A DNA stretch of 32,000 bases from Alkalilimnicola ehrlichii MLHE-1 (GCF_000014785.1 NC_008340.1:2820001-2852000); one strand, 5' to 3'; counted from the stretch's first letter, positions 2,292-27,619 are shown. Numbers and translations: made by a program. Notes: generated from the letters alone by a model not told the origin.

Positions 2292-2421
2292 GGGTATCCC
2301 GTGGGATTCGGTCGTCCTGTCCGCCGGCGCCCCGACATCATAGCCACAAATGCCCCCCGGCGGTAACCTGTAGCCAGTGACGGAACCCCTCATCAAGCCC
2401 GGGGGTCTCAACAAGGTGATC

Positions 2422-3879
2422 ATGAACGCCCGCCAAGCCTTTCAGTTGTTCATCGCGGCGCTCGTGGCAGTGGCCATGCTGCTCGCCAGCGTGACCGCCG
2501 CGCGGGCCAGCGAGGAGTTGCGCCTGCCTGATATGGGCAACCCCGCCGCTCAAGTCCTTTCGCCCAGCGACGAGCAGGCGATCGGGGACGAGCTGATGCG
2601 CCAACTCCGGCAACACCTGCCGCTCGCCGATGACCCTGAGATCACCGCCTATATCGATGAGCTGGGCCAACGGCTGGCGGCTCACAGCGACATGCCGGGG
2701 CTGCGCTTCACCTTCTTCGTGGTGGAGGACGACAATATCAACGCCTTCGCCATGCCCGGCGGCTACATTGGCATCAACACCGGCCTGCTGGACGCGGCGC
2801 GCTCGGAGAGCGAACTGGCCGCGGTCATGGCCCACGAGATCGCCCACGTCACCCAACGCCATATCGCCCGGCATTATGCCTCGGCCCAGCGCTTGAATCT
2901 GCAAACAGCCGCCGCCCTGCTGGCCGCGGTACTGATCGGCGCCTACGACCCCCAGGCCGGCAGCGCCGCCGCCATGGCCGGCATTGGCGGCACCCTTCAG
3001 CAGCAACTGAGCTACTCCCGGGGCTTTGAGCGCGAGGCCGATCGCGTGGGTTTGCGTATCCTCGCCCGTTCCGGGCTCGACCCGCAAGGCATGCCCGGCT
3101 TCTTCGAGCGCCTGCTTGAGGCCAGCCGCTACCGCGAGCGCGCCCCCGAATACCTGAGCACCCACCCGCTGACAGAAAACCGCATCACCGAGGCCCGCGC
3201 CCGCGCCGACGCCTACACCGTGGACGCCCCCCTGGAGAGCGGCCGGTTCCACGTCATGCAGGCCCGCCAGCAGGTGCTCGCGCAGGGCGATGCCCGCGAG
3301 GCCGTTCAGCGCTTCCGCGCCCGCGCGGAGCAGACCCGGGGTGCGGAGCAGATCGCCGCCCGTTACGGGCTGGCCCTCGCATTGATCCGCGATCGGCAGT
3401 TCGACGAGGCCGAGGCCCTGCTCTCTAAGCTGGAGGCGGACCTCTCCGGCCAGCCGGCATGGCTGCTGGCGCGCGGCCGCCTGCAGCAGCGCTCCGGCGA
3501 CCCGGCACAGGCGGCGGCCACCTTGCGCAAGGCTCAGGAGCTGTTCCCGGGCAACCGCGCCGCGCCCACCTACCTGGCGGACGCCCTGTTGGATGCCGGG
3601 CAGCCCAATGAGGCCCGGCAGGTGCTCACCCGCGCGGTACGCGACCACCCGAACCACCCGGAACTCAAGCGGCGCCTGGCGGAGGCGGCCAACGAGGCCG
3701 GGCGCCCGGTGGACGCCCACCTGGCCATGGCCCGCTACTACCACCAGCTCGGGGACCTGAACAGTGCCCTGGGGCAGTTGAGAGAGGTGGAGCACCACCC
3801 GCAAGCCGATTACTACCAGGCGTCCCGGGCGGCGGCGCTGAAGCGGGACTGGCAGCAAGAGGCCGCGCAACGGGACTGA
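2422..3879 (+). CDS. bepA: Periplasmic M48 zinc metalloprotease with C-terminal TPR repeats (BepA/YfgC-like)
   Basis: HEIAHVTQRH zinc motif (HExxH). Signal peptide MNARQAFQLFIAALVAVAMLLASVTAARA when translated from the ATG at 2422. TPR-like helical C-terminal half. Size is about 485 aa. Confidence 0.8.
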   Translation: MNARQAFQLFIAALVAVAMLLASVTAARASEELRLPDMGNPAAQVLSPSDEQAIGDELMRQLRQHLPLADDPEITAYIDELGQRLAAHSDMPGLRFTFFVVEDDNINAFAMPGGYIGINTGLLDAARSESELAAVMAHEIAHVTQRHIARHYASAQRLNLQTAAALLAAVLIGAYDPQAGSAAAMAGIGGTLQQQLSYSRGFEREADRVGLRILARSGLDPQGMPGFFERLLEASRYRERAPEYLSTHPLTENRITEARARADAYTVDAPLESGRFHVMQARQQVLAQGDAREAVQRFRARAEQTRGAEQIAARYGLALALIRDRQFDEAEALLSKLEADLSGQPAWLLARGRLQQRSGDPAQAAATLRKAQELFPGNRAAPTYLADALLDAGQPNEARQVLTRAVRDHPNHPELKRRLAEAANEAGRPVDAHLAMARYYHQLGDLNSALGQLREVEHHPQADYYQASRAAALKRDWQQEAAQRD

Positions 3880-3962: not shown

Positions 3963-4838
3963 GTGTCTGACCAAGGGGAGCAAACCCATAGCGACTGGCG
4001 CGCCTGGGCGGATGCCGCCCGGGAGCAGGTCCGTGCGTTCTGGTCCACCACGGTTGAGCTGTGGTCGGAGCAGCACCTGGGCCCGGCACTGGCAGTCCTC
4101 CAGGCGGCTGAGAGCGAGGGCGAGCGCCCCGACCCTGCGGCCCTGCACGCCGCCCTGGCGCCCCTGCGACAGCAACTCGAGCAGGGCTTCCGTCATCTCC
4201 ACCAGACCCTGGACTGGGGGCAGGGCCTGCGCCAAACCCTGGGCAGCGACACCCAGGACACCCCGCCGCCCGCCTGGCTGCGTCCCTGGCTCGACCTGGT
4301 CGCCGCCCGGCTCGGCCCCTGGGCGGACCATCAGGCCCGTCAACAGGCACTGATAGAGGCCGGGCTTCGCCACCAGATGGCTCTGGAACGCTTCCTGGGG
4401 CAGACCCGCGAGGCCGCCCTTGCTGGAGTGGAGCGATTGGCCGATGAGCTGGCGGCCTCGCCGCCGGCCCCACCCACCCTGCAGGCGGTACGTGATCGCT
4501 ACCTGCAAGCGAGTGAGCAGGCCTGGGAGGAGCGGCTGGGCACCGACGACTATCGCCAGGCCTTCGTCGCCCTCAGCGAGAGCAGCCTGGGCTACACCCG
4601 TGCGCTGCAGCAACACCTGGACCACTGGCTGGGCCTGCTGGATCTGCCCACCCGGCGCGGCCTGCACAGTACCCAGAAGCGGCTGCATGAACTCCGCCAG
4701 AGCCATCGGGCCCTGGCCAAGGAACTGGAACGGGCCGATCTCGACGGCTTGCGGGACGAGGTCCGCGCGCTGCGTGAGGAGGTCCGCCGGCTGCGGGGGA
4801 CCGGCGCTGATGGGCGGACCGGGGAGAGGCCGGCGTGA
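3963..4838 (+). CDS. phaE: Class III PHA synthase subunit PhaE
   Basis: Trp-rich N-terminus (DWRAWADAAREQVRAFWSTTVELWSEQ). C-terminal LLDLPTRRGLHSTQKRLHELRQ matches the L-x-LPTR...coiled-coil PhaE box as I recall it from cyanobacterial PhaE. GTG start. The stop overlaps the phaC start (GTGA at 4835-4838). Confidence 0.75.
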   Translation: MSDQGEQTHSDWRAWADAAREQVRAFWSTTVELWSEQHLGPALAVLQAAESEGERPDPAALHAALAPLRQQLEQGFRHLHQTLDWGQGLRQTLGSDTQDTPPPAWLRPWLDLVAARLGPWADHQARQQALIEAGLRHQMALERFLGQTREAALAGVERLADELAASPPAPPTLQAVRDRYLQASEQAWEERLGTDDYRQAFVALSESSLGYTRALQQHLDHWLGLLDLPTRRGLHSTQKRLHELRQSHRALAKELERADLDGLRDEVRALREEVRRLRGTGADGRTGERPA

Positions 4839-5926
4839 CCTCAGGCCTACCCCCGGAACGCGGGGAAGACTCCCTTAACCCGTCAATGGCCGCTCTGCAG
4901 GCGGTCCTGGATGAGTGCGCGGCTCTGCAGCCGGTCACCGTGGGCGAGACCCCGCGCACCGCCATCCACACCCTGCCGCCCGCCACCCTCTACCATTACC
5001 CTCCGCCCGCCGATACCCAAGCCCCGGAACCAGAGGCAAGGCGCCCGCTGCTGGTGCTCTACTCCCTGGTCAACCGCCCCTATCTACTGGACCTCTCTCC
5101 CCAGCGCTCATTGCTCCGGGGTCTGCGCGACAGCGGCCTGCCGGTCTATTTGCTGGACTGGGGTCGGCCGGAGCCGGCCGACCGTTTTCTCGGGCTGGAC
5201 GACTACCTCTGCGACATCCTGCATGAGGCGGTGAAGGAGGTGAGCCGCCGCCATGGCGGTCAGCCGGTGGACCTGCTGGGGGTCTGCCAGGGCGGTACCT
5301 TCTCGCTCTGCTACACGGCCCTGCACCCGGAGCGGATCGGGCGGCTTGCGACCCTGGTCACCCCCGTCGATTTCCACTGCCCCGGGGACACCCTCGGCGC
5401 CCTGGCCCGGGAACTGAACCTGGGGCTGGCGGTGGAGACCCTGGGCAACATCCCCGCCGATCTGCTCAACCTGGTCTTTATCAGCCTCAAACCGGCCGAA
5501 CTATTGTCCCGGCGCTACCTCCAGCAGCTCCCGCAGTTGCGCCACAACCGCGATGCCCTGCAGGACTTCCTGCGCATGGAGCGCTGGATGTACGACAGCC
5601 CGGACCTCAGCGGCAGGGCCTTTCTGGAGTTCGTCCGCGAGTTCTATCAGGACAACGCCCTGGCCCGCGGCACGCTCACCATCGGCGGCCGCGAGGTGGA
5701 CCCGACCCGCATCCGGCAGCCGGTTTTCAACGCCTACGCCACCGCGGATCACCTGGTACCCCCGGCCGCGGCCCGCGCCATGGGCACGCTGCTGAGTAAT
5801 GCCGACTACCGGGAGGAGGCGGTGCCCGGGGGACACCTGGGGGTGATGCTGAGCAAGAAGGCCCGACTGGGCCTGCACCAGCGCCTGCAGGATTGGCTGG
5901 CACAGCCCCTCCCAGCGGCCCCATAG
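4835..5926 (+). CDS. phaC: Class III poly(R)-hydroxyalkanoate synthase catalytic subunit PhaC
   Basis: About 363 aa, the class III size. Lipase-box-like GVCQGGTFS with the catalytic Cys. Downstream ATADHLVP (Asp) and GGHLGV (His) are positioned as in the Cys-Asp-His triad. Translationally coupled to phaE. Confidence 0.9.
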   Translation: MTSGLPPERGEDSLNPSMAALQAVLDECAALQPVTVGETPRTAIHTLPPATLYHYPPPADTQAPEPEARRPLLVLYSLVNRPYLLDLSPQRSLLRGLRDSGLPVYLLDWGRPEPADRFLGLDDYLCDILHEAVKEVSRRHGGQPVDLLGVCQGGTFSLCYTALHPERIGRLATLVTPVDFHCPGDTLGALARELNLGLAVETLGNIPADLLNLVFISLKPAELLSRRYLQQLPQLRHNRDALQDFLRMERWMYDSPDLSGRAFLEFVREFYQDNALARGTLTIGGREVDPTRIRQPVFNAYATADHLVPPAAARAMGTLLSNADYREEAVPGGHLGVMLSKKARLGLHQRLQDWLAQPLPAAP

Positions 5927-6006
5927 CCCAGTGGCCCGCTTGGAAAAACCGGCAAGACAGCACGTTATGACGCCTTGCTCATGATGCGGCGCGTCAACGA
6001 AAGTAC

Positions 6007-6034
6007 TTGCCATGACGATTTGCCGCACTACAAT
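6007..6034 (+). promoter_or_regulatory. Candidate sigma70 promoter pointing into the phaC-phaB intergenic island
   Basis: TTGCCA (6007-6012), 16-nt spacer, TACAAT (6029-6034). No plus-strand CDS follows. The next plus-strand signal is the intrinsic terminator at 6264-6292. Confidence 0.4.
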
Positions 6035-6097
6035 GGCTTCCCATCAGCTGGTTGAGACAATATGCCGCAGAGCAGCCAGCCGGACGGTGTAGCAGGC

Positions 6098-6123
6098 AAA
6101 AAAAACCCCCTCGGGAGAGGGGG
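6098..6123 (-). terminator. Rho-independent terminator (minus strand)
   Basis: On the minus strand: CCCCCTC-TCCC-GAGGGGG followed by TTTTTTTT. On the plus strand this is A8 at 6098-6105 and the stem at 6106-6123. Confidence 0.7.
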
Positions 6124-6263
6124 CAAGAGGAAGGCGACGTTTACCTAGGATACGCGCCGCCAGGAGGAGACCGACTAATAACTATAACAAGCAGTCCTTG
6201 CCAAGGCGCTCCATAAAAAGCGCCTGTCATCAGACAGGGCAAACAACAGCGCCACTACCCGCC

Positions 6264-6292
6264 GGGGAGCCGCCACCGCTCCCTATTTTTTT
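6264..6292 (+). terminator. Rho-independent terminator (plus strand)
   Basis: GGGGAGC-CGCCACC-GCTCCC followed by TATTTTTTT. Confidence 0.65.
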
Positions 6293-6301
6293 GCCCCTCT
6301 G

Positions 6302-6318
6302 ATGTTGCTGTGCAACAT
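6302..6318. promoter_or_regulatory. Perfect 17-bp palindrome ATGTTGC-TGT-GCAACAT; putative PhaR-type operator
   Basis: The 7-3-7 arms are exact. It overlaps the last 2 nt of the minus-strand -10 and the predicted +1. A 13/17 related copy lies in the phaB leader (7254-7270). Confidence 0.5.
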
Positions 6319-6345
6319 TCTATGACGGCCGATTCACCTTGTCAA
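6317..6345 (-). promoter_or_regulatory. Strong sigma70-type promoter (minus strand)
   Basis: On the minus strand: TTGACA (6345..6340), 17-nt spacer, TAGAAT (6322..6317). Confidence 0.6.
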
Positions 6346-6418
6346 CGCCTGGTCAGGTAATTTTACCGAACCGTCACTCAGAGAAGGGCGCGTCCTGGTC
6401 GGCGGCGCCCTGCCCCCC

Positions 6419-7165
6419 TTAGAAACTGCAGAACAGCCCACCATTGACCGGGATGTTGGCGCCGGTGATGTAGCCGGCGTCATCCGCCGCCAGGAACCGC
6501 ACCACCCGGGCGATATCGGCCGGCTGGCCCATACGGCCGGCGGGCACCTGGGCCACGATGGCCTCACGGACATCGTCCGGCATGGCGGCCGTCATCGCGG
6601 TGTCGATGTAGCCCGGCGAGACGGTGTTCACAGTCACCCCCTTGCGGGCGCCCTCCTTCGCCAGGGCCATGGTGAAGCCGTGCATACCCGCCTTCGCGGC
6701 CGAGTAATTGGTCTGACCAAACTGTCCGGTCTGGCCGTTCACCGAGGCGATATTGATGATCCGCCCGAACCCGCGCTCGCGCATGCCGACCACGAACTGC
6801 CGGGTGACATTGAACACGCTGTTCAGGTTGACGTTGAGCACCGCGGCCCAGGCGTCCGCGTCCATCTTGTGGAGAAACGCATCCTTGGTGATCCCGGCCA
6901 CGTTGACCAGCACGTCCACCGGGCCGTGGGACTCCTCGACCTGCCGGGCCATGCGGGCACAGCTTTCGAAGTCCGCGACATCGCACTCCACGTAGGCGGC
7001 ATCGACGCCCTCGGCGTTCAGCTCCGCCTGCCATCCGGCCAGGTTCTCCTTCTCGGCGTCCAGGCAGGTGGTGATAACCCGGTAGCCGGACTGCCCCAAC
7101 TGACGGCAGATCTCGGTGCCGATACCACCGTTGCCACCGGTTACAAGTGCCACGCGTTCTGCCAT
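6419..7165 (-). CDS. phaB: NADPH-dependent acetoacetyl-CoA reductase (SDR family)
   Basis: MAERVALVTGGNGGIGTEI (Rossmann TGxxxGIG). NYSAAKAGMHGFTMALAKEGARKGVTVNTVSPGYIDTAM closely resembles the PhaB YxxxK region. About 248 aa from the ATG at 7165, preceded by AAGAGGGG. The longer ORF start at 7267 is rejected. Confidence 0.9.
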   Translation of the reverse strand: MAERVALVTGGNGGIGTEICRQLGQSGYRVITTCLDAEKENLAGWQAELNAEGVDAAYVECDVADFESCARMARQVEESHGPVDVLVNVAGITKDAFLHKMDADAWAAVLNVNLNSVFNVTRQFVVGMRERGFGRIINIASVNGQTGQFGQTNYSAAKAGMHGFTMALAKEGARKGVTVNTVSPGYIDTAMTAAMPDDVREAIVAQVPAGRMGQPADIARVVRFLAADDAGYITGANIPVNGGLFCSF

Positions 7166-7253
7166 GACGATACCCCTCTTCCAATCAAAAATGGCGACGG
7201 AGCAGATGCCGCTCACGCCCGAAAGCGGTGTGACCAGCAAGGCCGAAGGCCCC

Positions 7254-7270
7254 GTGTTGCGGTGCACAAT
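7254..7270. promoter_or_regulatory. Second copy of the TGCAC-N-GCAACA motif (putative PhaR operator) in the phaB leader
   Basis: Minus-strand ATTGTGCACCGCAACAC versus ATGTTGCACAGCAACAT at 6302-6318: 13/17 identical, and the core TGCACnGCAACA is identical at all 11 fixed positions. It starts 15 nt downstream of the phaB -10. Confidence 0.45.
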
Positions 7271-7285
7271 CGCTGATTGGAGCTG

Positions 7286-7314
7286 ATAGTAGGGTCAGTT
7301 CACCCCGGTGTCAA
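7286..7314 (-). promoter_or_regulatory. sigma70-type promoter of phaB
   Basis: On the minus strand: TTGACA (7314..7309), 17-nt spacer, TACTAT (7291..7286), about 120 nt upstream of the phaB ATG. Confidence 0.55.
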
Positions 7315-7354
7315 CGGGTGACGCGTCGTTCAGGTCGGTTTTGTGATCTGTGCC

Positions 7355-7888
7355 TCAGCGCTTGGTGCGGGTGCCGCCCTTGCCCTTTCCGGTGGACTTC
7401 CCGCCGCGTTCCCCGTCGGCGCCCGAGCCCTGCTCATCATCCTCGGCACCCTGGGGCTCGAGGCCGCTCATGGCCTGCCACATGGAGAGGTTACGCTCGG
7501 CGAATTGGGTGAGGACGTTGATGGGGCTGTGGTCCATGAAGGTGCGGGTCCGCTCCTGCAGCATCCGTTGCTGGTCGAACCAGAGCTCCAGGCTTTTCTC
7601 CAGGTAGGTGGTCAACACGTTCTGCATGTTGCCGCCGTAGGCCCGGATCAGCTGGGCGAGCAATTCACTGCTGAAGATGGGCTCACCACCCTCCTCCTCC
7701 TCGGCGATGATCTGCAGCAGGATACTACGGGTAATATCCTGCCGCGTTTTCGCATCAATCACCTGGAAATCCACCGCATCCAACACCAACCCCTTGACGT
7801 CCGCCAGGGTGATGTAGCTGCTGATGGCGGTATCGTAGAGGCGGCGGTTGGGATACTTTTTGATGACGCGGATTTCACTCATGACCAT
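7355..7888 (-). CDS. phaR: Polyhydroxyalkanoate synthesis repressor PhaR
   Basis: The N-terminus M(VM)SEIRVIKKYPNRRLYDTAISSYITLADV is the hallmark PhaR motif. Start is the ATG at 7888 or at 7882; GGAG lies 4 and 10 nt upstream respectively. Basic Gly/Lys tail. The 255-aa ORF start at 8122 is rejected. Confidence 0.9.
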   Translation of the reverse strand: MVMSEIRVIKKYPNRRLYDTAISSYITLADVKGLVLDAVDFQVIDAKTRQDITRSILLQIIAEEEEGGEPIFSSELLAQLIRAYGGNMQNVLTTYLEKSLELWFDQQRMLQERTRTFMDHSPINVLTQFAERNLSMWQAMSGLEPQGAEDDEQGSGADGERGGKSTGKGKGGTRTKR

Positions 7889-7967
7889 TACGCTCCGGGC
7901 AGGACGCTTCAGGTGTGTACTGGGGTATAATGGTGACCGGGCAGGGCCGGGGTGACACCCCCTGGCT

Positions 7968-8008
7968 TGCGGCGCCGCACCATTCGCTAAAACCACAGTA
8001 TGGTGCGG
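7968..8008. promoter_or_regulatory. Dyad symmetries around the phaR promoter and leader
   Basis: CCGCACCAT (7975-7983) pairs with ATGGTGCGG (8000-8008), bracketing the -10 and +1. A perfect 12-bp palindrome TGCGGCGCCGCA lies at 7968-7979. Confidence 0.35.
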
Positions 8009-8023
8009 GGCCAAGCCTGTCAA
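7995..8023 (-). promoter_or_regulatory. sigma70-type promoter of phaR
   Basis: On the minus strand: TTGACA (8023..8018), 17-nt spacer, TACTGT (8000..7995). Confidence 0.55.
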
Positions 8024-15243: not shown

Positions 15244-15471
15244 TCAAGGGGTTTCATCCAGGATCGTGAACGCCGCCAGCACCGTCCCCAGCAAAATCGC
15301 CGGGATGGCGGTAACCGGCGCCAGGATCATCAGCAGACCGGCCCCGATCCACAGGTCCCGGACCCGGCGCTGCTTGCGCCGGTAGTGGCGGGTGGTCCGG
15401 CGCCAACTGGGGTGGCGGGCCCGGTCCTCTTCGGAAAGCCCCGGCGGCGGGCGAACGATGCGGTACCACAT
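15244..15471 (-). CDS. Small hypothetical membrane protein (75 aa)
   Basis: GAGGAG lies 6 nt upstream of the ATG at 15471. Arg-rich N-terminal half followed by one or two hydrophobic helices (LWIGAGLLMILAPVTAIPAILLGTVLAAFTIL). No family recognised. Confidence 0.45.
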   Translation of the reverse strand: MWYRIVRPPPGLSEEDRARHPSWRRTTRHYRRKQRRVRDLWIGAGLLMILAPVTAIPAILLGTVLAAFTILDETP

Positions 15472-15626
15472 GACGGGCTCCTCGCGGCCGGTGGGGCACC
15501 CGCTACGGCCGGACAACGGGCCATGGCCCGCCTGCCCGCCCACCGGGTGCCACGCTGCCCAATGGTCCCCCCAGGATAGGCCATGGCGGGCCGCCCCGCT
15601 GCCGGCACCGGCGGCGCTACCCGTTT

Positions 15627-22899: not shown

Positions 22900-23949
22900 A
22901 TGCCCAGCAACAGCAGACGACAGTGGGGCAGCGCCAGGATCGCGGCGCTGGCTGTGGCCCTTGCGGTGACGGGGCAGGCCCACGCCCGCCTGCCGGTGGT
23001 CGACCCGCCGCTGATGCCCGAGGCGCCGGCGGATTACCGCGCCGCCAGCCTCTCCGGGGGGCCCGGGAAGGACGGCATCCCGGCCATCGACAACCCCGCG
23101 TTCCAGGCCGCCTCGGAGGCCGACGCCCGGCTCGACGACGGCGACCGGGTGGTGGGCCTCTACCATGACGGCGAAGCCCGGGCCTATCCCCAATCCATCC
23201 TGGTCTGGCACGAAATCGTCAACGACACCGTGGCCGGCGAGAACATCGCCGTCACCTACTGCCCCCTCACCGGTACCGCCCTGGGTTACCTGCGCGGCGA
23301 GACCACGCTGGGCGTCTCCGGCCGCCTGGTGAACAGCAACCTGATCATGTTCGACCGGGCCAGCGACAGCCTCTGGCCCCAGATACTGAGTGCCGGCATC
23401 GGCGGCCCCCACGAGGGCCAGGGGTTGGAGGAAGTGCGCGTGGTCTGGACCACCTGGGGCCGTTGGCGCGAGCGCCACCCGGACACCCGGGTGCTGACCA
23501 CGGACACCGGCTACCTGCGCAATTACAACCGCGACCCCTACGGCGGGTATAACCCGGTCCGGGGCTATTACGCCCCCAACGCATCGCCCATCTTCCCGGT
23601 CCGCCCGAGCAGCGACCGCTACCCGCCGAAAGAGGAGGTCTTCGGCATCCGCACCGCCAGTGCCGCGGTGGCGCTGGATCGGGACCACCTCGCGGCGGCG
23701 GGCGTGGTGAACATTCCGCTGGGTGATGACCACCTGGTGGTGGTCCACGACCCCGGCCTGGATACCGGTTGGGCCTTTCGTGCCGACGAGGCGGTGGCGC
23801 TGGACCCGACAGCGCTGCGGTTCGGGCCCGAGGGCCCGGTACACCCGGAGTTGGCGGACCTGGAGCGAGTGAACGGCTTCGAGGCCATGTGGTTCGCCTG
23901 GTACGCCTTCTATCCGGATACGGTGGTGGTCGATGGCGCTGGCCGCTGA
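22900..23949 (+). CDS. Secreted DUF3179 domain-containing protein
   Basis: Signal peptide MPSNSRRQWGSARIAALAVALAVTGQAHA. GKDGIPAIDNPAF...RVVGLYHDGEARAYPQSILVWHEIVND...IAVTYCPLTGT...MFDRASDSLWPQ matches my recollection of DUF3179 (PF11376) conserved blocks. Confidence 0.8.
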   Translation: MPSNSRRQWGSARIAALAVALAVTGQAHARLPVVDPPLMPEAPADYRAASLSGGPGKDGIPAIDNPAFQAASEADARLDDGDRVVGLYHDGEARAYPQSILVWHEIVNDTVAGENIAVTYCPLTGTALGYLRGETTLGVSGRLVNSNLIMFDRASDSLWPQILSAGIGGPHEGQGLEEVRVVWTTWGRWRERHPDTRVLTTDTGYLRNYNRDPYGGYNPVRGYYAPNASPIFPVRPSSDRYPPKEEVFGIRTASAAVALDRDHLAAAGVVNIPLGDDHLVVVHDPGLDTGWAFRADEAVALDPTALRFGPEGPVHPELADLERVNGFEAMWFAWYAFYPDTVVVDGAGR

Positions 23950-24472
23950 TCCGGTGCCCCGCCGCGCCGCCCTGGCCGCGGGGCTGGGCTACGCGGCGCT
24001 TTATCTCTGGCTGACCGGTGATCTCGACCTCACGGGCGACACGGCCTGGCGCTGGCAGTTGGGGCGCCTGGAATGGGCACATGTAATCCAGGCACGCGCG
24101 CCGTTTCTCTACGAAGCCGTTGCCCTCGTCCAGGCGGGCCGCCTGATGTGGCTCATCAGCCCGCTGAACCTGCTGATCACCGCCCTGCTTGCGGGCCTGC
24201 TGGCCGCCAATGTGCACGGCATGCTGACCCTGCGCCGTGGCGCGGCCACCCATTGCCGCAGCGGGCGGGGGGGCGCGGCCAGCGGCGCCCTGCCGGCATT
24301 GCTGGCCGGCTCCGCCTGTTGCGCCCCCGGCATCCTGCTGCTGTTGGGCATTCCGGCCCTGGGGGCCTTTGTCGGGTTGTTCGCCTGGCTGATCCCCCTC
24401 TCCCTGCTGCTGCTGGCCCTGAGCCGCGGCTGGCAGCGGTGGTGGGGCGCGCCCCCGCTCCTCGGGCGCTAG
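23933..24472 (+). CDS. Hypothetical 4-TM inner-membrane protein with intramembrane vicinal cysteines (MerT-like SACC motif)
   Basis: Four hydrophobic segments. LLAGSACCAPGILLLLGIPALG places Cys129-Cys130 (nt 24317-24322) inside TM3. The ATG overlaps the DUF3179 gene end by 17 nt. The stop shares CTAG with the convergent kinase gene. Confidence 0.6.
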   Translation: MALAADPVPRRAALAAGLGYAALYLWLTGDLDLTGDTAWRWQLGRLEWAHVIQARAPFLYEAVALVQAGRLMWLISPLNLLITALLAGLLAANVHGMLTLRRGAATHCRSGRGGAASGALPALLAGSACCAPGILLLLGIPALGAFVGLFAWLIPLSLLLLALSRGWQRWWGAPPLLGR

Positions 24473-26765: not shown

Positions 26766-27281
26766 TCAGTAGTGGTCCGGGGTGACCGAGACGCGCAGGC
26801 GGATACGGTCGCCGGGGTGACTGTTGGTGCGCGTGGTGTACTCGCGGCCATCGTAGCGGTAGCGCACCCGGTAGCCGTCGTGGCGCTCCTCGGTCCGGCG
26901 GTCGTAGACGGTCCGGCACTGGCGCTCGTTGACTGTGTAGGTCCGCGACTCGCTCCCGCTCAAACCGTCCGCGATGCCGGCACCGGCCAGCGTGCCCGCG
27001 GCGATGGCGGCATCGCGCCCGCGGCCGCCGCCAAAGCGGCTGCCCACCAGGCCGCCGGCCACGCCGCCGGCGATCACCGCGGCGGTGTTGCGCTGCCCCT
27101 GGGTGGTCCGCTGCACCGGCTGGTCCCAGCACTCCTGGCGCGGGTTGGAGACCTCCACCGTGCGGTACTGCGGCGTGACGCTGAGCACTTCACCGTAGGC
27201 ATACTGGTCACCTGCGGCCTGGGCCAGCCCCGCCACCAGCAGGCCGGCGGTTGCCAGGGCAGTGATCATCGGCTTGTTCAT
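26766..27281 (-). CDS. Glycine-zipper (Rick_17kDa_Anti / SlyB-like) outer-membrane protein
   Basis: Signal peptide MNKPMITALATAGLLVAGLAQA. Glycine zipper AAVIAGGVAGGLVGSRFGGGRGRDAAIAAGTLAGAGIADG. AGGAGAGG lies 6 nt upstream of the ATG at 27281. Confidence 0.8.
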   Translation of the reverse strand: MNKPMITALATAGLLVAGLAQAAGDQYAYGEVLSVTPQYRTVEVSNPRQECWDQPVQRTTQGQRNTAAVIAGGVAGGLVGSRFGGGRGRDAAIAAGTLAGAGIADGLSGSESRTYTVNERQCRTVYDRRTEERHDGYRVRYRYDGREYTTRTNSHPGDRIRLRVSVTPDHY

Positions 27282-27334
27282 GGCACACCTCTCCTGTTCT
27301 TGTTCGGCCAGACGGGGACAGGATGCCCGGACGT

Positions 27335-27373
27335 GGCTGAACGCAGGCTGAACGGCGACACGAACGGCTGGAC
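27335..27373. promoter_or_regulatory. Tandem direct repeats GGCTGAACG x2 at 11-bp phasing, plus a third degenerate copy; candidate response-regulator box
   Basis: GGCTGAACG at 27335-27343 and 27346-27354, and GGCTGGAC at 27366-27373. The repeats lie 54-92 nt upstream of the glycine-zipper gene ATG, on its upstream side. Confidence 0.4.
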
Positions 27374-27430
27374 GGTGGTGGTGGCGTTGGTGCGGGCGCC
27401 GGGGCGGGGATCGTCCGCTGGGGCGACTTA

Positions 27431-27547
27431 TGCGCACCGAGCAACGCAGGGAAAAATCGGGAAAAGCGCGTGCCTGTTCGAGCGAAGCGAGTTCACGCGC
27501 GCCGATTTTTCCCGAGTAGCGCAGGGAACCCCCGAAGGGGGTGCGCA
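27431..27547. repeat. ~117-bp nested inverted-repeat element (MITE/REP-like element or structured leader)
   Basis: The outer repeat is TGCGCAC (27431-37) / GTGCGCA (27541-47). The middle repeat is GGGAAAAATCGG (27449-60) / CCGATTTTTCCC (27502-13). The inner repeat is GCGCGTG (27466-72) / CACGCGC (27494-500). There is also a direct repeat CGCAGGGAA (27444-52 and 27520-28) and a CCCCC-GAA-GGGGG hairpin (27529-41). Confidence 0.5.
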
Positions 27548-27619
27548 TTTGGAGCCCCGGGGGACGACCCCCCGCCCCGGCGCCCGCGCCAACACCACGA
27601 CTTGGTTTAGAATGGCCCC

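Follow-up and report, generated by a model that had tools for sequence, protein, structure and literature searches.

The phaC–phaB spacer described here lies in a stretch of 32,000 nucleotides from the genome of Alkalilimnicola ehrlichii MLHE-1 (GCF_000014785.1, NC_008340.1:2820001-2852000), referred to as the window and numbered from its first letter. The spacer is part of a polyhydroxyalkanoate (PHA) locus in which an M48 peptidase (2377-3879), PhaE (3963-4838) and the class III synthase PhaC (4835-5926) are encoded on the plus strand, followed after 492 bp by PhaB (7165-6419) and PhaR (~7882-7355) on the minus strand and an HDOD protein on the plus strand. The spacer forms a trough in GC content (0.55-0.57 against 0.65-0.73 in the flanking genes), as had been noted in a preliminary description of the region, and holds no gene call in the annotation of the source genome. 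It is probable that the spacer consists of two convergent small RNA (sRNA) genes that overlap by ~195 nt, each tied to an operator of the PhaR type.

A signal scan of the 2-kb region gives three promoter-like sites against 0.4 expected and seven terminator-like sites against 1.0 expected. On the minus strand the promoter P2 (6317..6345) is formed by TTGACA (6345-6340) and TAGAAT (6322-6317) at a distance of 17 nt, and matches the consensus at 11 of 12 positions. A perfect 17-bp palindrome, O2 (ATGTTGCTGTGCAACAT, ATGTTGC-TGT-GCAACAT; 6302-6318), lies as a PhaR-type box over the -10 and +1 of P2; it has 2 nt in common with the -10 hexamer and spans the expected start at ~6310. The unit is closed 213 nt from this start by an intrinsic terminator (GCCCCCTC-TCCC-GAGGGGG followed by T8; 6124..6098) that was also returned by the signal scan. 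The predicted sRNA of ~213 nt (6098..6310, minus strand) has a fold z-score of -3.1, and its 3' domain (6175-6098) is arranged by RNAalifold as a seed (CUCCUCCUGG), a hairpin of 7 bp, a CU-rich spacer and the terminator. Promoter, palindrome and terminator had all been reported in the preliminary description, and each is borne out by the present analysis.

That description missed a second unit, which runs towards the first on the plus strand. The promoter P1 (6007..6034) reads TTGCCA-16-TACAAT and matches 10 of 12 positions in the signal scan. It is preceded by a second PhaR-type box, O1 (TGATGC-GGC-GCGTCA; 5982..5996), which is centred at about -52 from the plus start and is followed by the conserved sequence AACGAAAG. 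The plus-strand sRNA, with its start placed from the -10 hexamer, would be ~252 nt long (6041..6292) and has a fold z-score of -3.2. Its 3' domain (6203..6255) is built from GGCGCU (6205-6210) paired with AGCGCC (6248-6253) around a hairpin CCUGUC..GACAGG. The intrinsic terminator beyond this domain, also found in the signal scan (GGGGAGC..GCTCCC, then A, then T7; 6264..6292), brings the RNA to an end 10 nt short of O2. The minus terminator doubles as a 5' hairpin of the plus RNA.

The two predicted RNAs have an invariant core in common (6160..6170), which reads CCAGGAGGAGA on the plus strand and UCUCCUCCUGG on the minus strand and takes the form C[CG]NRGAGGAG in every locus. The plus RNA presents it as a single-stranded, purine-rich stretch (CCAGGAGGAG). 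Its complement on the minus RNA includes the stretch UCUCCUCCUG, complementary to the invariant plus-strand CCARGAGGAG, that the preliminary description had taken for an exposed sequence resembling the anti-Shine–Dalgarno (anti-SD). In the predicted ensemble this is correct for the five central bases of the seed, CCUCC..U, which are unpaired with probabilities of 0.84-0.98, but not for the flanks, which are paired. A second accessible stretch of the minus RNA, UUCCUCUU, is unpaired with probabilities of 0.83-0.98. The core is invariant also in Spiribacter, where promoter and terminator are found only on the plus strand, and its conservation cannot therefore be credited to the minus RNA alone.

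Abutting the core is a hairpin (6133..6161; GGCGACG...CGCGCCGCC on the plus strand) the position of which is kept while the sequence of its stem varies (GGCGACG/CGTCGCC, GGCGACT/AGTCGCC, GGTGC/GCACC and GCGATG/CATCGC across loci). On the minus strand the pair 23/49 of this hairpin is G·U in four and A-U in two of seven sequences; read as plus strand, the G·U sequences give an A·C mismatch. Where a locus carries the minus unit, the minus-strand version of the hairpin is the more stable one (by 0 to +6.5 kcal/mol), and in three loci with only the plus unit it is the plus-strand version (-1.3 to -1.5), a small sample in which the direction is consistent. The same comparison of minimum free energies for the plus 3' domain is uninformative, because its A-rich loops turn U-rich on the other strand.

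Searches anchored on PhaC gave 20 genome loci and 21 metagenome loci for comparison, numbered L001 onwards. Nearly all are of the Ectothiorhodospiraceae type (Halorhodospira, Alkalilimnicola, Aquisalimonas, Spiribacter and metagenome-assembled genomes, MAGs); L021 and L022 represent the same or a near-identical strain and add nothing. The relatives conserve the order M48, PhaE and PhaC facing PhaB and PhaR, and the spacer between them is homologous. On the plus strand its layout consists of a palindrome [TG]TGC-N3-GCA[AG]C, AACGAAAG, a -35 of the form TTGCnn and a -10 TAnnnT at 16-17 nt, followed by the invariant core, the variable hairpin, the conserved helix and an intrinsic terminator with T6-8. 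The promoter pattern TTGCnn-16/17-TAnnnT is kept across clades A and B of the relatives. The O1/P1 architecture (O1 box, AACGAAAG and -35 block) was identified in 29 loci with regular expressions for promoter, core and terminator, and the unit was seen by eye also in L001, L005, L017 and L025. In total the plus unit is found in 33 of the 35 loci with a complete region, the exceptions being L003 and L004.

The Spiribacter loci have the plus promoter and terminator and no minus unit. In part of this clade (L007, at 7012-7935, L010, L013, L028, L031 and L040) phaC is separated from the element by a gene for a carbohydrate kinase of the pfkB family. In L007, L010, L013 and L028 the whole element, from box through promoter and RNA to terminator, nevertheless remains together beside phaB, and the plus unit is therefore not simply the 3' untranslated region (UTR) of phaC. 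Among 17 distinct sequences of the Spiribacter clade AAGAGGAGGAG is invariant in the alignment, and one hairpin varies as GCACCC/GGGUGC, GCGCCC/GGGCGC, GCAUCC/GGAUGC and GCGUCC/GGACGC (RNAalifold). A covariance model (CM) built from Spiribacter only finds positions 6139-6292 of the window, on the plus strand (19.2 bits, E ~6e-4), as well as all clade A loci in which the plus 3' domain is present; minus-strand matches are absent throughout, and L003 and L004 give no match.

Whole-RNA MAFFT alignments of clade A were too crude for pair counts, so module-level and CM-based alignments were used. All 13 pairs are 100% paired in the CM-based alignment, which is fitted to the model and therefore leans towards structure, and nine of the 13 show double changes (34 cells). 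This level was reached in none of 500 shuffles, and the slid controls collapse. Since the helices contain nine G·U cells and no A·C cells, they are read on the plus strand. The 3' helix is homologous to the helix P3 of clade B, with four of its six pairs doubly changed and G·U pairs that are valid on the plus strand only. The plus unit thus combines a promoter, a terminator, the absence of an open reading frame (ORF), conservation above neutral and covarying helices, as would be expected of an independent sRNA gene.

The minus unit has a narrower distribution. The design of P2 and O2 (TTGAC[AG]-17/18-TAnnnT-G-palindrome) is present in eight loci (the window, L023, L001, L003, L004, L005, L017 and L020), and was found again in L005 and L003 by an independent signal scan. 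Seven of these eight, all except L017, carry the terminator CCCCCTC/GAGGGGG with its T-run, as does the partial contig L024, and the terminator is seen in none of the 18 loci without P2. The operator-overlapped, non-coding minus-strand unit of the preliminary description thus recurs outside the window. A CM for the minus RNA (R2) scores 94 bits in the window and 58-84 bits in six other loci. The R2 match is single-copy in the window, and neither CM finds an extra copy there. In L003 (6877-7140) and L004 (7012-7368), which represent Halorhodospira neutriphila and a MAG, the plus terminator and 3' domain have been lost while minus promoter, operator, seed, hairpin and terminator are all retained, the minus RNA of L003 being compact at ~110 nt. 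In L005 a separate phaB terminator lies upstream of P2, so that the minus RNA is an independent unit in this locus. With a promoter, a terminator, no ORF, conservation above neutral and strand-specific pairing, the minus unit likewise has the properties of an independent sRNA gene. The Alkalilimnicola MAG L017 (7100-7372) has kept the minus promoter and operator and has no recognisable minus terminator; it may represent an intermediate in loss of the minus unit.

The closest relative of the window is L023, in which PhaC is 72% and PhaB 92% identical and the third codon positions of phaB are 61% identical. The 51-nt block containing hairpin and core (6125-6175) is 100% identical between the two, the plus terminator 97% and the minus terminator 89%, and the segment that belongs to the plus RNA only (6041-6097) 61%. 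None of the four promoter hexamers and neither palindrome has changed, while both promoter spacers have diverged; this is the footprint expected of two functional promoters. Taken together the comparisons indicate purifying selection on each unit within the lineages that possess it. The plus gene is family-wide, and the minus gene has been kept in Halorhodospira/Aquisalimonas-like lineages and lost elsewhere together with its terminator. In a neighbour-joining tree of PhaB and PhaC the loci with both units lie on basal, paraphyletic branches, which suggests that the pair is ancestral and that minus promoter and terminator were jointly lost several times.

The link to PhaR comes from the boxes. 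Palindromes of Ralstonia eutropha PhaR follow YTKNTGCRNYGCANMAR, with sites at phaP1 that adjoin the -35 on its upstream side, surround the start or lie further downstream (PMC12849132), and the core motif of Sinorhizobium meliloti PhaR is YGCRNYGCR (PMC12542648). O2 (TGTTGC-TGT-GCAACA) and O1 (TGATGC-GGC-GCGTCA) agree with one or other of these consensus sequences, and O2 also fits TKNTGC-N3-GCANMA and YGC-N3-GCR. The bare palindrome pattern has one match in the 32 kb against 0.64 expected and is not rarer than chance. As the pattern alone is not significant, conservation and a position weight matrix (PWM) built from the spacer boxes (consensus TGyTGC-N3-GCArCA) were used in its place. Five sites in the 32 kb score above the shuffle maximum of 12.1 bits, and all of them lie within 5841-7985. 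Two belong to the training set, namely O2 (6300-6320; 24.8 bits, the best in the window) and O1 (5979-5999; 16.7 bits). The three outside it are a box in the phaB leader (7252-7272; 17.4 bits), one at the 3' end of phaC (TGATGC-TGA-GCAAGA, 5841-5861; 15.0 bits) and one just downstream of the phaR promoter (7965-7985; 13.2 bits). The copy of the palindrome that the preliminary description placed in the phaB leader is thus recovered as a related box, and PhaR is, as it stated, encoded next door (7355-7882). The palindrome gains its significance from recurring at one set place in the relatives and from the way in which the PWM hits cluster.

The phaB leader box lies downstream of a phaB promoter TTGACA-17-TACTAT (7314..7286), and a box is found at the phaB position in most loci. 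The phaR promoter is TTGACA-17-TACTGT (8023..7995), and the box at the phaR position is present also in L023, L004 and L025. phaR, phaB and P2 therefore have three tandem minus-strand promoters of one design, TTGACA-17-TAnnnT followed by a downstream box. A box at the O2 position is seen also in loci that have no P2. The phaC-internal box, ~75 nt before the stop codon, was not found at this position in L023 and could be an auxiliary operator or due to chance. In Spiribacter a box of 22-24 bits is located upstream of the thiolase gene (phaA) that precedes phaR-phaB (L006 9825-9845, L007 ~11097, L012 ~9824); in the window phaA does not adjoin phaR.

Neither strand of the spacer shows evidence of a conserved coding sequence. 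ORFs of 28-54 codons occur in this region of the window, and the longest on the minus strand are two of 33 codons. Both 33-codon ORFs are absent from L023, the plus-strand ORFs shift frame, and no peptide is common to the loci. No clade has a start codon after the SD-like plus core, and the indels downstream of the core across loci are not multiples of three. A small protein was accordingly rejected, in agreement with the view of the preliminary description that the interval holds no credible ORF. The same description assigned the unit to the 'phasin position' of the locus. This stands as an analogy only: a phasin gene downstream of P2 was considered and rejected, as there is no conserved ORF and no gene call between phaB and phaC.

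No match at Rfam gathering thresholds was obtained in the window or in nine loci, a scan proposed in the preliminary description and in line with RNAs of no known family. In E-value mode the window, L006 and L003 gave noise only (MmgR, anti-hemB and snoRNA-type matches). The closest candidate, MmgR (RF00519), reaches 17.8 bits at 6091-6162 on the minus strand (E 0.37) and 16.7 bits in L003 against a gathering threshold of 41 bits, and membership was rejected. This sub-threshold match rests on the terminator and on a spacer motif that the relatives do not share; the CU motif that MmgR has between hairpin and terminator finds a counterpart in the accessible UUCCUCUU of the window, but the spacer is unconserved in L001, L003, L004 and L020. 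No report of an sRNA from these taxa came up in the literature searched. A sigma-54 promoter at the conserved CTTGC block was rejected by eye, as there is no GG at the required spacing, and a CsrB/Rsm-type sponge role for the plus RNA was also rejected, there being no Rfam match even in E-value mode, one conserved GGA cluster and nothing other than GGA content in its favour.

Some features of the neighbouring genes may be recorded here. The phaB stop codon is directly trailed by a minus-strand hairpin (GGGCGC..GCGCCC, 6410-6386) with a weak UUCUCU tail, and L023 has another hairpin, of 9 bp, at the same position; phaB transcription may enter the minus sRNA region by read-through. The start codon of phaC is probably the GTG at 4835, which overlaps the phaE stop (GTGA) and has the SD sequence GGGGAGAGG upstream; the public gene call begins at ATG 4886 (346 aa) and is without an SD. 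No phasin domain is found among the 30 likely genes of the 32-kb window. An ORF of 99 aa (15244-15543, minus strand) and ORFs at 23933-24472 (plus) and 26766-27548 (minus) are without a Pfam match. A phasin gene, if there is one, is located elsewhere in the genome.

The minus RNA is reminiscent of MmgR of S. meliloti (alpha-r8, RF00519 'suhB'), a small terminator-ended non-coding RNA with a PhaR palindrome in its promoter and a single-stranded pyrimidine-rich stretch. MmgR is repressed by PhaR (AniA), the binding of which was shown by electrophoretic mobility shift assay (PMC12542648), and lowers phasin protein levels and limits polyhydroxybutyrate (PHB) (PMC8401924; PMC12542648). The PhaR/AniA palindrome in the promoter appears to have its equivalent in O2 over the -10 and +1 of P2. 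In contrast to MmgR, the minus RNA is not homologous, belongs to a gammaproteobacterial host, is ~213 rather than 77 nt long and lies within the pha locus; its conserved seed is 5' of the hairpin and not in the hairpin-terminator interval, and a second sRNA gene overlaps it. It may work like MmgR, by analogy, and without membership of that family.

Pairs of sRNA genes on opposite strands of one locus are represented by SdsR/RyeA in E. coli and CJnc190/CJnc180 in Campylobacter, which are mutually antisense and can antagonise each other (PMC6610125, PMC8687705). The arrangement described here is alike in this respect, as far as sequence signals tell. It differs in that the sequences are unrelated, both promoters have boxes for one regulator, each terminator stops just short of the other promoter, and lineages keep one strand, the other or both. 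With R. eutropha phaP1 there is a likeness in the boxes, TGTTGC-N3-GCAACA fitting YTKNTGCRNYGCANMAR, and in their placement directly upstream of a -35 (O1/P1) and over a start (O2/P2); here the boxes belong to two promoters that face each other, and the predicted RNAs do not code for protein. In Azotobacter PHB is under the control of the Gac/Rsm system, and the plus RNA recalls the protein-sponge RNAs CsrB/RsmZ in being purine- and GGA-rich, with GGA in a hairpin loop in some loci. Its conserved GGA motifs number one or two at most, however, and no upstream element of the GacA type was apparent; the likeness was taken as a lead only.

The proposed mechanism is as follows. PhaR that is free of PHA granules would bind O2 and block P2, as at the similarly designed promoters of phaB and phaR. 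Nascent PHA would titrate PhaR, and the minus RNA would then be made, the pyrimidine-rich seed of which may act on purine-rich or SD-like sites, by analogy with the PhaR-repressed MmgR. At O1, ~-52 from the plus start, PhaR would set the output of the plus RNA, either repressing P1, in the manner of BS1 at R. eutropha phaP1, or possibly activating it; activation is entertained because the -35 of P1 is weak in most loci, and R. eutropha PhaR can activate phaP3 (PMC12849132). As the seeds are exact complements, the two RNAs might neutralise each other by a 195-nt duplex or through convergent transcription, following the logic of SdsR/RyeA, and the net riboregulatory output would then be set by how far PhaR occupies its sites.

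A more speculative extension, to which we give little weight, is an RNA toggle. The locus would encode two functional riboregulators, the purine-rich, SD-like seed of the plus RNA being the exact complement of the pyrimidine-rich, anti-SD-like seed of the minus RNA. Both would be under reciprocal control by PhaR, which would aid the weak P1 from O1 while blocking the strong P2 from O2. PHA granules would flip the output from plus to minus. The pair would be ancestral, lineages having later kept one strand (plus in Spiribacter, minus in the Halorhodospira neutriphila group) or both.

A duplex-energy search for targets ranked the region of phaC GTG-4835 and the phaE start first and second among 23 translation-initiation regions of the window. 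A coding motif at the 3' end of phaE, CGCCAGGAGGU (window 4771-4810: CGUGAGGAGGU), is complementary to the minus seed and identical to the plus core. This site lies 59-114 nt before the phaC start and is among the best duplex sites in four of seven loci (the window, L003, L004 and L005). It is constrained by coding and absent from the top hits of L023, and is regarded as a lead only.

Several points weigh against two PhaR-tied sRNA genes. Both units are predicted from signals in the DNA, their starts being placed from the hexamers, and binding of PhaR at the boxes is proposed from their likeness to alpha- and betaproteobacterial sites and not to sites of this PhaR. The -35 of P1 is weak in many loci (TTGCGT), and a strict scanner misses P1 in L005 and L006. 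Structure-preserving covariation, put forward as a check in the preliminary description, is found in the plus helices (9/13 pairs) and is thin on the minus strand, with seven sequences from about five lineages. The tree is a rough one, without support values. The target leads, at the phaE 3' end and around the start of phaC, are weak and do not recur in L023, and the model leaves the role of the purine-rich seed in plus-only lineages unexplained.

Among other explanations, only the plus RNA might act in trans and the minus signals might constitute a cis device without targets of its own, either a PhaR-gated antisense promoter or a phaB 3' UTR ending at 6098, that shuts off the plus RNA by collision or duplex formation. 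The near-universal plus unit and the invariance of the core in plus-only lineages agree with this, and since the interval from the phaB stop to P2 lacks a strong terminator in the window and has only the hairpin at 6410-6386, with its poor U tail, read-through from phaB could span the region. An antagonist would be pointless, however, in L003 and L004, where P2, seed, hairpin and terminator are kept although the partner plus unit, with its terminator and 3' domain, is gone. The G·U pair of the hairpin is valid on the minus strand only, and phaB of L005 ends in a separate terminator ahead of P2, so that such a device appears unlikely. Still less probable is the single PhaR-repressed minus sRNA of the preliminary description, with the plus signals incidental, for example the terminator of phaC and a promoter arisen by chance. 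In its favour, P2 is the stronger of the two promoters (11/12), its operator is perfectly placed, and the weak Rfam matches to sRNAs with CU seeds fall on the minus strand. Against this, 33 of 35 complete loci possess P1, O1 and the plus terminator, and at least 20 of these have neither P2 nor the minus terminator; the plus elements stay together in L007, L010 and L013 despite pfkB, and both the G·U pairs of the 3' helix and the CM matches are specific to the plus strand.

The region might instead produce no stable sRNA at all, and consist of crossed phaC and phaB 3' UTRs with their terminators and of auxiliary PhaR operators that loop the DNA to control phaB and phaC. Auxiliary PhaR sites with looping have been proposed at R. 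eutropha phaP1 (PMC12849132), and boxes flank the region here even where P2 is missing. This would account poorly for hexamers that are kept at fixed spacing while the spacers diverge, for 51 nt that are 100% identical where the neutral identity is 61%, for covarying helices with strand-specific G·U pairs, and for an element that stays intact when uncoupled from phaC; it is considered highly improbable. A small protein encoded on either strand has the least to recommend it, and we give it almost no credence. ORFs of 28-54 codons are available and the plus core resembles a strong SD, but the 33-codon minus ORFs are not in L023, the plus ORFs shift frame and none is common to the loci, the SD-like core is not followed by a start codon in any clade, and the indels downstream of it are not in triplets. 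Two convergent sRNA genes within the spacer are therefore the reading adopted here.

What appears to be new in this arrangement is the combination of PhaR-controlled riboregulation with a mutually cis-encoded pair of sRNAs, neither of which matches an Rfam family. PhaR-controlled riboregulation of PHA storage is known so far from a single alphaproteobacterial sRNA, MmgR. The present locus suggests an independent origin of this logic among halophilic and alkaliphilic Gammaproteobacteria that have class III synthases, and in an unusual form, as convergent sRNA genes with a common core that are embedded in the pha cluster. With over 25 distinct sequences, the family of plus-strand RNAs could enter Rfam, and the compact promoter-operator-sRNA module might find use as a PHA-responsive element in the engineering of PHA producers. 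The lineages with both strands, plus only and minus only form an evolutionary series for the rise and decay of antisense sRNA pairs, and the locus provides a testable model in which PhaR, titrated by granules, would be linked to post-transcriptional control.

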